Below are positions 62,056-62,869 of a stretch of DNA of 64,000 bases, in pieces. Numbering within the stretch: position 1 is the first letter of the stretch; each line of letters begins with the position of its first letter. The notes beneath the pieces are model-generated. The model made no database searches, was not told the origin of the DNA, and was given only the letters and a program-made list of their open reading frames with translations. A program made the translations under genes and the position numbers. This DNA is from Octopus vulgaris (lineage: Eukaryota): assembly GCA_951406725.2 (NCBI GenBank), contig OX597830.1, forward strand, positions 78,368,001 through 78,432,000, in the 5' to 3' direction.

Positions 62056-62308
62056 CTATGTGTATATACATATATGTACATATATATGTATATATATATA
62101 ATGATAAATCTCAGAGCGAGTTATAAACAGTAGCGGTAACACATCGTGACGCATATTTGCCATTTGAATATGGCTCACCCATAAGGGTGGATGCTACTGT
62201 AGTTTGTAGCCCCAGGAAGATATCTCCTCCAGTTGGCTATAGACACACGACCTGTGTCCTCTCAGTATTTGTGAAGGGGAGTCATCCTCCCCGTCTTCAA
62301 CACATGAT

Positions 62309-62352
62309 ACACACTGATGAAAGGTAAACACCTTGAAACTCGGGTACGTGTG
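62309..62352 (+). ncRNA. Type I hammerhead ribozyme motif, copy 1 (core intact, one nucleotide lost from stem I)
   Basis: CTGATGA (62314-62320) AAGGT-AAAC-ACCTT GAAAC-TCGG-GTA; predicted cleavage after 62346. Confidence 0.7.
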
Positions 62353-62660
62353 TATCATGTGTTGAAGACGGGGAGGATGACTCCCCTTCACAAATACTGA
62401 GAGGACACAGGTTGTGTGTCTATAGCCAACTGGAGGAGATATCTTCCTGGGGCTACAAACTACAGTAGCATCCACCCTTATGGGTGAGCCATATTCAAAT
62501 GGCAAATATGCATCACGGTGTGTTACCGCTACTGTTTATAACTCGCTCTGAGATTTATCATTGTTTTATTTCACTTTTTCAATATCAGTGTCAATCGGAC
62601 ACTGGAAAAAGTATATGTATTTGTGAAGGGATCTGATTTCTCGTCGACAACCATGATTGT

Positions 62661-62705
62661 CACACGCTGATGAAAGGTAAACACCTTGAAACTCGGGTAC
62701 GTGTG
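62661..62705 (+). ncRNA. Type I minimal hammerhead ribozyme, copy 2 (intact)
   Basis: CACACG-CTGATGA-AAGGT-AAAC-ACCTT-GAAAC-TCGG-GTA/CGTGTG: 6 bp stem I, 5 bp stem II, 2 bp stem III with self-complementary ACUCGGGU, GUA cleavage triplet (cut after 62699). Confidence 0.88.
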
Positions 62706-62869
62706 TATCATGTGTTGAAGACGGGGAGGATGACTCCCCTTCACAAATACTGAGAGGACACAGGTTGTGTGTCTATAGCCAACTGGAGGAGATACCTTCC
62801 CGGGGCTACAAACTACAGTAGCATCCACCCTTATGGGTGAGTCATATTCAAATGGCAAATATGCGTCAC

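Follow-up and report, generated by a model that had tools for sequence, protein, structure and literature searches.

We analysed a 64,000-nucleotide stretch of Octopus vulgaris DNA, referred to below as the window. It contains a non-coding repeat with two hammerhead ribozyme cores, flanked on each side by (TA)n-rich sequence. Positions within the repeat unit are numbered from one predicted cut to the next, such that u1 is position 62347 and u353 is position 62699. PLE stands for Penelope-like element. The features are as follows.

61996 to 62099, no strand: (TA)n-rich target, left side
62100 to 62314, minus strand: inverted arm; reverse complement of u2-216 (62348-62562), 215 nt with 3 mismatches (99%); bears the long 3' end (u216)
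62100 to 62145, minus strand: 46-nt 'tail' of PLE type (u171-216), absent from the other end; assigned from family ends at u167-177 and u213-225
62309 to 62869, plus strand: direct arm, consisting of u316-353, a full unit and u1-170; bears the short 3' end (u170)
62309 to 62352, plus strand: hammerhead 1, likely impaired; its core is at 62314-62320 and its predicted cut follows 62346; located on the inversion joint, stem I closing pair A.C
62347 to 62699, plus strand: the 353-nt unit (u1-u353), spanning the two predicted cuts; 42% GC, strongly self-paired
62641 to 62660, plus strand: empty LINE target (u295-314), duplicated around full-length LINE copies elsewhere
62653 to 62712, plus strand: hammerhead 2, complete type I; core at 62667-62673, stem II at 62674-62687, palindrome at 62691-62698, predicted cut after 62699
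62870 to 63071, no strand: (TA)n-rich target, right side

The locus is not a plain tandem. It consists of one inverted arm (u2-216) joined to about 1.6 direct units (u316-353, u1-353 and u1-170), with an overlap of 6 nt at the joint. An earlier note on this DNA had described two hammerhead cores in direct repeat. Both CTGATGA cores are present, at 62314 and 62667; the inverted copy at 62100-62314 had been overlooked. Other parts of that description hold. The GTA triplets of the predicted cuts end at 62346 and 62699 and are spaced by 353 nt. The direct repeat of 62309-62516 and 62662-62869 has 5 mismatches in 208 nt, and (TA)n flanks are found on the left and right. There is no credible ORF: the longest stop-free frame has 113 codons across 62100-62869 and 68 codons on the closed unit. 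A coding role for a short frame starting in the hammerhead core was rejected.

The unit has features by which retrozymes are recognised, being arranged head-to-tail, within 150-450 nt in length, below 50% GC and devoid of an ORF. The high self-pairing of retrozymes is also found; the predicted fold has an energy of -134.7 kcal/mol (z -9.5), and none of 100 shuffled sequences was as low.

Two other fragments occur in the window. At 61223-61648 on the plus strand is a short LINE 3' fragment, presumably RTE-like, with a 142-codon frame that has no Pfam match. At 63078-64000 on the minus strand is a broken reverse-transcriptase fragment that we take to be Dong/R4-like.

Hammerhead fold and predicted cleavage

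The stems of the second hammerhead are complete, as had been proposed. Stem I pairs 62661-62666 with 62700-62705 and is extendable, stem II has 5 bp, and stem III has 2 bp with ACTCGGGT. In hammerhead 1 the upstream strand of stem I, present in the family, is missing, and an A faces a C at the closing pair. Furthermore, its core C is paired inside a long hairpin in the predicted fold. Because the closing pair of hammerhead 1 is broken, and its core C is in the hairpin, release of a monomer is doubtful for any transcript that includes the left arm. Hence, the earlier suggestion that two cuts free a 353-nt monomer is not supported here, since hammerhead 1 lies on the inversion joint and is predicted to be impaired. 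Retrozymes are also recognised by two consecutive complete hammerheads; these are absent from the window locus and are spanned by copies such as L002 and L003.

Folding of 62100-62869 gave equilibrium predictions of the cost of forcing the active shape, which were 11.1 kcal/mol for hammerhead 1 and 5.1 kcal/mol for hammerhead 2. Placing the catalytic strand of hammerhead 2 on site 1 (the double-hammerhead register) cost 65 kcal/mol with the left arm, and 0.9-2.3 kcal/mol without most or all of it. The predictions suggest that monomer release at the window locus would need a transcript without the left arm. Rather than serving as a source, the window copy is likely a product, and it is probably a poor source of monomer.

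The core motif alone is weak evidence for a hammerhead, the window having 5 matches to a loose core-GAAA pattern. A covariance-model search (Rfam), as the earlier note had proposed, gave no hammerhead match at the gathering score and none among the 47 matches up to E 10. The Rfam miRNA matches were hairpin and (TA)n artefacts, and a miRNA hairpin reading was rejected. For covariation we aligned 22 of the 41 distinct variants from fetched loci, picked to cover subfamilies, with most single-change copies left out. In the hammerhead structure 93.1% of cells were paired, compared with 85.1% after shuffling, and 9 of 20 pairs change on both sides, while slid controls pair 25-53%; the control ignores relatedness, which inflates such scores. 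Stem II is the weakest helix (82.7% paired), and the core is altered in some older subfamilies (to CCGATGA or TTGACAA). As judged by its core, stems and covariation in the 22 variants, the motif is a type I hammerhead fold. The covariation implies selection on that fold. One older subfamily (L108, L197-L222), in which CCGATGA replaces the CTGATGA core in most copies read, is widespread nonetheless.

The stem III loop stays self-complementary despite changes of letter (TCGG, TCGA, TGCA, TATA and CGCG, with a shortened form, TA, in four rows). Across the 22 variants the two inner palindrome pairs are 100% paired, with compensating changes. Since a four-base loop cannot self-pair in cis, the conserved palindrome favours a double hammerhead. 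A self-complementary, 2-bp stem III had been taken to favour cleavage as a dimer. The 2-bp stem alone is insufficient, and it is the conserved palindrome that carries the case for a dimer. Invertebrate hammerheads typically have a 2-bp stem III with a tetraloop, and most of them cleave efficiently (PMC7229834). Of nine predicted frog retrozyme dimers, one cleaved in vitro (10.64898/2026.07.22.740005). For the 353-nt unit, self-cleavage and a circular RNA are predicted from the modelled fold. Contigs from two runs presumed to be RNA and two unlabelled runs cross the cut site and a head-to-tail joint, but were rejected as RNA evidence; contigs are blind to strand, ends and circles, and the joint is that of a genomic tandem.

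A dispersed family and its insertion ends

The genome (2.8 Gb) was searched with a 570-nt query, which yielded 2556 candidates, and the best 40 of these 2556 were scored. An exact 32-nt core had 176 matches in the genome and 0 in the reversed control. This core is carried by 33 of the 56 hammerhead spans in the top loci; hence, at a rough estimate, the young subfamily has some 300 hammerheads. Family copies lie about 1.5% from the column majority, outside 15 polymorphic columns, and older subfamilies are 69-91% alike to the unit. The copies are dispersed with fixed ends, ruling out a satellite made by local duplication. Their arms are unequal and overlap in unit coordinates, ruling out a MITE or DNA transposon. 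A loose-end motif from run contigs was traced only to an older retrozyme subfamily. Contigs of runs X18 and X19, labelled as two other organisms, also cover the unit, with high depth in X18; the family may therefore be common to related species.

We compared 63 independent insertions, drawn from L001-L060 and L063-L080 once 11 loci retrieved a second time, 3 LINE-linked loci and 1 near-duplicate had been removed. The insertions were picked by similarity or exact core and are not a census. Outer 3' ends fall mostly at u167-177 or u213-225, followed by (TA)n, and 5' ends are scattered. Two arms are present in 38 of the 63. Among these, 30 combine a long with a short end, 1 has two long ends, 0 have two short ends and 7 have an end elsewhere. 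Long is thus paired with short in 30 of the 31 two-armed insertions that can be classified (p = 1.5e-8 against 50:50). The longest arm is 821 nt, copies reach a maximum of about 2.3 units, and no long arrays were seen among the 63 sampled insertions. Comparison at the 15 polymorphic columns gave 30 differences in 400 sites for opposite arms and 14 in 294 for tandem passes, against 46% between loci. All arms and passes of an insertion therefore derive from one template or one source. The end at u170 lies inside an AC-rich hairpin loop of the predicted fold. Three inversion joints (L001, L008 and L028) are located in extended stem I and overlap by 6 nt; the template switch may therefore be guided by RNA pairing.

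The insertions carry the marks of PLEs, namely 5' truncation, partial tandems, an inverted truncated arm, a one-ended tail and (TA)n targets. In PLEs 5' truncation is the rule, and a description of PLE structure that covers Hydra, Neptune and Naiad elements includes partial tandems, inverted truncated copies, a (TA)n bias and a 30-40-bp tail, often one-ended (PMC8557442). The tail of Poseidon PAc spans two internal reverse-transcription starts downstream of the hammerhead, one of them in an AC-rich stem-loop, and the PLE protein is predicted to be a dimer (PMC11167929). The retrozyme differs from these elements in having no ORF and a tail of about 46-49 nt, rather than 30-40. Whereas the PLE literature has the one-ended tail 'often', it is here counted (30/31) and tied to a shared template.

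The earlier note had proposed a retrozyme that depends on Penelope-like machinery. This reading is supported, more strongly than the letters of the locus allowed, by the dispersal of the family, the PLE-type ends, the covarying hammerhead, the palindromic stem III and the small distance of copies (~1.5%) from the column majority. The contrary case, in which the unit would invariably be a coding PLE's terminal repeat, did not occur among the 63 insertions. Taken together, the window probably holds one insertion of a dispersed non-coding hammerhead family (an animal retrozyme), likely copied in trans by a PLE enzyme, with a fixed site for an L1/Tx1-type LINE in its stem I region.

In the cycle that we propose, intact tandem copies would give transcripts that the hammerhead cuts, probably in the form of a double hammerhead paired through the palindromic stem III. 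The cut would yield a 353-nt RNA, which may circularise. A PLE protein would then nick (TA)n, and reverse transcription would start from the internal sites u170 and u216, one on each side of the break and both on the same template. Synthesis would not stop at the cut site and could extend over as many as about 2.3 units; the two cDNAs would be joined back to back. We infer PLE mobilisation with two-site priming from the anatomy of the insertions. To be copied beyond the cut site, the template must be a circle or an uncut multimer, or the enzyme must jump between templates; the genome cannot separate these. Because PLE insertion in vitro proceeds without hammerhead cleavage, and with uncleaved RNA as the main substrate (PMC11167929), an uncleaved multimer could serve as template.

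PLE families with long open frames ending in (TA)n are present in the genome. Four of the many families present were examined, and no significant terminal sequence was common to the unit and an autonomous PLE in these four. As partners we rejected a Neptune-type family (775-aa frame), in which no hammerhead and no significant sequence in common with the unit were found, and a Hydra-type family (842-aa frame), with no hammerhead in the stretches examined and no significant similarity to the unit. A second Neptune-like family has a small, unrelated hammerhead-like motif, and a second Hydra-type family (899-aa frame) has a similar palindromic hammerhead, with a long stem II, and ends at about +64 and +224, a spacing unlike that of the retrozyme. 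Both were rejected, as neither has significant similarity to the unit. The Neptune-type PLE (L162-L195) is very young. Its 775-aa RT/GIY-YIG frame recurs in many nearly identical copies and is overlapped from upstream by a 454-aa frame in a different phase; its tandem units measure 4271 nt and reach 100% identity, and its ends lie about 40 nt apart. The two Hydra-type families (842 and 899 aa frames) are found at L256-L259 and at L296-L318 and L320-L349. In the second of these families the hammerhead has a palindromic ACACGTGT, and the ends are about 157 nt apart, far above the usual tail.

Two other origins of the copies have to be weighed. They could be 5'-truncated terminal repeats (pLTRs) of a coding PLE outside those found, given that every insertion mark is of PLE type, that 5' truncation is a PLE rule (PMC8557442) and that the families examined are four of many. 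However, upstream of the hammerhead the copies run on into further sequence of the 353-nt unit, through as many as two rounds. In addition, the 5' flanks of 22 single-arm copies have no sequence in common, except for one 33-nt match, and PLE frames adjoining copies are separated from them by (TA)n or lie on the opposite strand. We therefore regard a pLTR origin as very improbable. A less distant alternative is that PLE enzymes move uncleaved multimeric transcripts, with the hammerhead kept and no circular RNA made or used. This would agree with uncleaved RNA as the main in vitro substrate (PMC11167929) and with the short arms, which fit a linear dimer or trimer as template; the circle of the 353-nt unit is itself a prediction. 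Conversely, a longer source array was not seen in the sample (which is not a census), the covarying hammerhead implies selection on its fold, and related retrozymes accumulate as circles (PMC7229834). On balance, we consider such a cleavage-free cycle rather unlikely.

Metazoan non-LTR retrozymes (mussel, 350-390 nt; axolotl Rtz_353; PMC7229834) likewise have a type I hammerhead in a short, low-GC, non-coding, self-paired, head-to-tail unit, a short stem III and autonomous PLEs in the same genome. Conversely, the copies here are dispersed, have at most about 2.3 units in our sample and mostly carry inverted arms and tail-type ends. The available text of PMC7229834 describes neither tail-type ends nor a LINE parasite. 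Cleavage and circles are demonstrated in that work, whereas here they are predicted from sequence. Dependence on PLEs has also been concluded in a study of retrozymes as non-autonomous PLEs (10.64898/2026.07.22.740005). Its basis is co-occurrence and pLTR similarity in 35 genomes, mostly of vertebrates; ours is insertion anatomy, with no similar pLTR found. The enzyme that moves animal retrozymes was left open in PMC7229834, and PMC8557442 calls the origin of tandem and inverted PLE insertions unsolved. For both questions the octopus family offers countable footprints: two fixed start sites, paired ends and one template. Its 353-nt substrate is small enough for the published in vitro PLE assay.

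A separate and unrelated family of small hammerhead repeats (CTGATGAACGGCAACGAGAAACTC...) was seen at L223:1690-1870, L027 and L067.

A LINE at a fixed retrozyme site

Five loci start at u295 behind one common foreign sequence. At L061, u1-314 is followed by a 5.3-kb LINE (L061:2240-7539) and then by u295 onward, generating a perfect 20-bp duplication. Pfam searches with the L061 frames, which are frameshifted in this copy, identified a zinc knuckle in ORF1 and APE, RT and zf-RVT domains in ORF2. For a full-length relative, the best match among solved structures was human L1 ORF2p. The best protein match with a named source was from Argonauta hians (55% identical), and no named Tx1 protein was among the matches listed in protein searches with the LINE. 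We tentatively take the LINE to be of Tx1 type, from its architecture.

The LINE 3'-end pattern had 35 matches in the genome and 3 in the control. The retrozyme site is entered by 17 of the 35; the other 18, mostly from a sister family 85-89% alike and often in tandem arrays, do not enter it. In a search with the LINE only, the best 40 of 1925 candidates were scored and 35 of those 40 were examined. Hammerhead repeats contain 29 of the 35 examined 3' ends, at the equivalent site. Of the 18 closest LINE ends, 17 enter u295, and all 12 ends of a second sublineage lie in older hammerhead repeats. Five ends, L150 plus 4 from a third sublineage, lie in different targets. Target-specific LINEs are those with over 20% of flanks in one target (PMC4494074); the proportion here is well above this, and the target is duplicated. 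Duplications of 14-20 bp surround 23 of 23 full-length copies examined, and in 22 of the 23 a hammerhead core, or remnant of one, lies 25-30 nt past the aligned LINE end. In retrozyme families 67-99% alike, the LINE enters about 26 nt upstream of the hammerhead core. L061, L113 and L120 have a hammerhead on each side of the LINE. LINEs in hammerhead repeats were found at L061, L112-L125 and L260-L274.

Such an association could also arise if the LINE were not site-specific, and one or a few LINE-retrozyme chimeras had been multiplied as cargo by PLE machinery. LINE copies do group by host subfamily in a tree whose bootstrap had not settled. L116, L125 and L268 resemble insertions of PLE type whose truncation point falls within the LINE. 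L117, too, is cut short within the LINE and lacks upstream retrozyme sequence. However, hosts that are only 72-95% identical contain LINE 3' ends of at least 97.7% identity; A and B hosts are 87% identical and their LINEs 98%. Rare variants are, moreover, common to both duplication copies in L113, L269 and L274. It follows from these two observations that the LINE insertions are independent. Truncated LINEs at L062, L121 and L265 also have retrozyme upstream. Hence, cargo transport as the sole explanation is improbable and largely refuted. Targeting and PLE transport of the LINE probably both operate, the second probably adding to the first rather than replacing it. It is more improbable still, and hardly credible, that mobilisation of the retrozyme is due to the LINE instead of a PLE. 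In favour are the physical linkage of the two and crocodilian SINEU, which is thought to use Tx1 (PMC4494074); against it, retrozyme copies show (TA)n ends, tail-type paired ends and overlapping inverted arms, whereas the LINE has a different target and makes duplications of 14-20 bp.

Two copies bear on the RNA of the targeting LINE. L124 has an A-type host, groups with B-hosted LINEs (99/93) and carries B-type sequence over about 70 nt just upstream. L119 has the reverse switch of host type. The simplest reading is that the LINE RNA brings upstream retrozyme sequence to new sites, the alternative being gene conversion. The donor-type retrozyme upstream of both copies therefore suggests co-transcription of LINE and retrozyme.

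Target-specific Tx1 LINEs include Tx1 in Tx1D, Tx1-Mar in Mariner-N4 and Keno in U2 genes (via PMC4494074). They too are APE-RT LINEs with an ORF1 zinc knuckle and a fixed site in multicopy sequence, including other transposons. Conversely, the target here is a hammerhead retrozyme, followed across families only 67-99% alike, and the LINE comes to sit immediately 5' of a hammerhead, in some cases with one on either side. R2, in 28S rDNA, is co-transcribed with its target, and upstream target sequence is copied into its new 5' junctions. Co-transcription of R2 is mentioned in PMC4494074. The octopus LINE is alike in being likely co-transcribed with its target, with upstream target sequence probably carried into new 5' junctions. 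It differs from R2 in endonuclease class, and any processing ribozyme would belong to the target rather than to the LINE.

We tentatively suggest a three-tier chain of parasites. A LINE lineage would have specialised on hammerhead retrozymes, as R2 has on rDNA, and would use retrozyme transcription and ribozymes to obtain a hammerhead-to-hammerhead LINE RNA of roughly 5.7 kb. This RNA, possibly circular, would itself be portable by PLEs. The strict long and short pairing of ends would reflect a PLE dimer whose two active sites prime on a single circular RNA.

Retrozymes are known (PMC7229834), their PLE origin has been argued (10.64898/2026.07.22.740005) and transposon-targeting Tx1 elements are known (PMC4494074). 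Neither this retrozyme family nor a LINE that targets a hammerhead element was found reported in literature whose coverage is thin for subscription papers, Repbase and supplements. The available text of the octopus repeat annotation (PMC13282606) makes no mention of ribozymes. The family could be listed in the supplements of PMC7229834, PMC8557442 or PMC13282606. The LINE adds a class of target for which we found no report, an element with a predicted self-cleaving ribozyme. It is also a natural test of whether a retrotransposon can borrow the promoter and ribozyme of its host element.

The retrozyme is not a target of the 85-89% sister LINE (L126-L131, e.g. G000:C5:29184006-29205146), whose copies are arrayed head-to-tail and repeat about every 5276 nt. 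In the third LINE sublineage (L154, L158, L160 and L161) a common GAGTTAGTTCCC motif follows the LINE, and several copies are on contigs C2 and C27.
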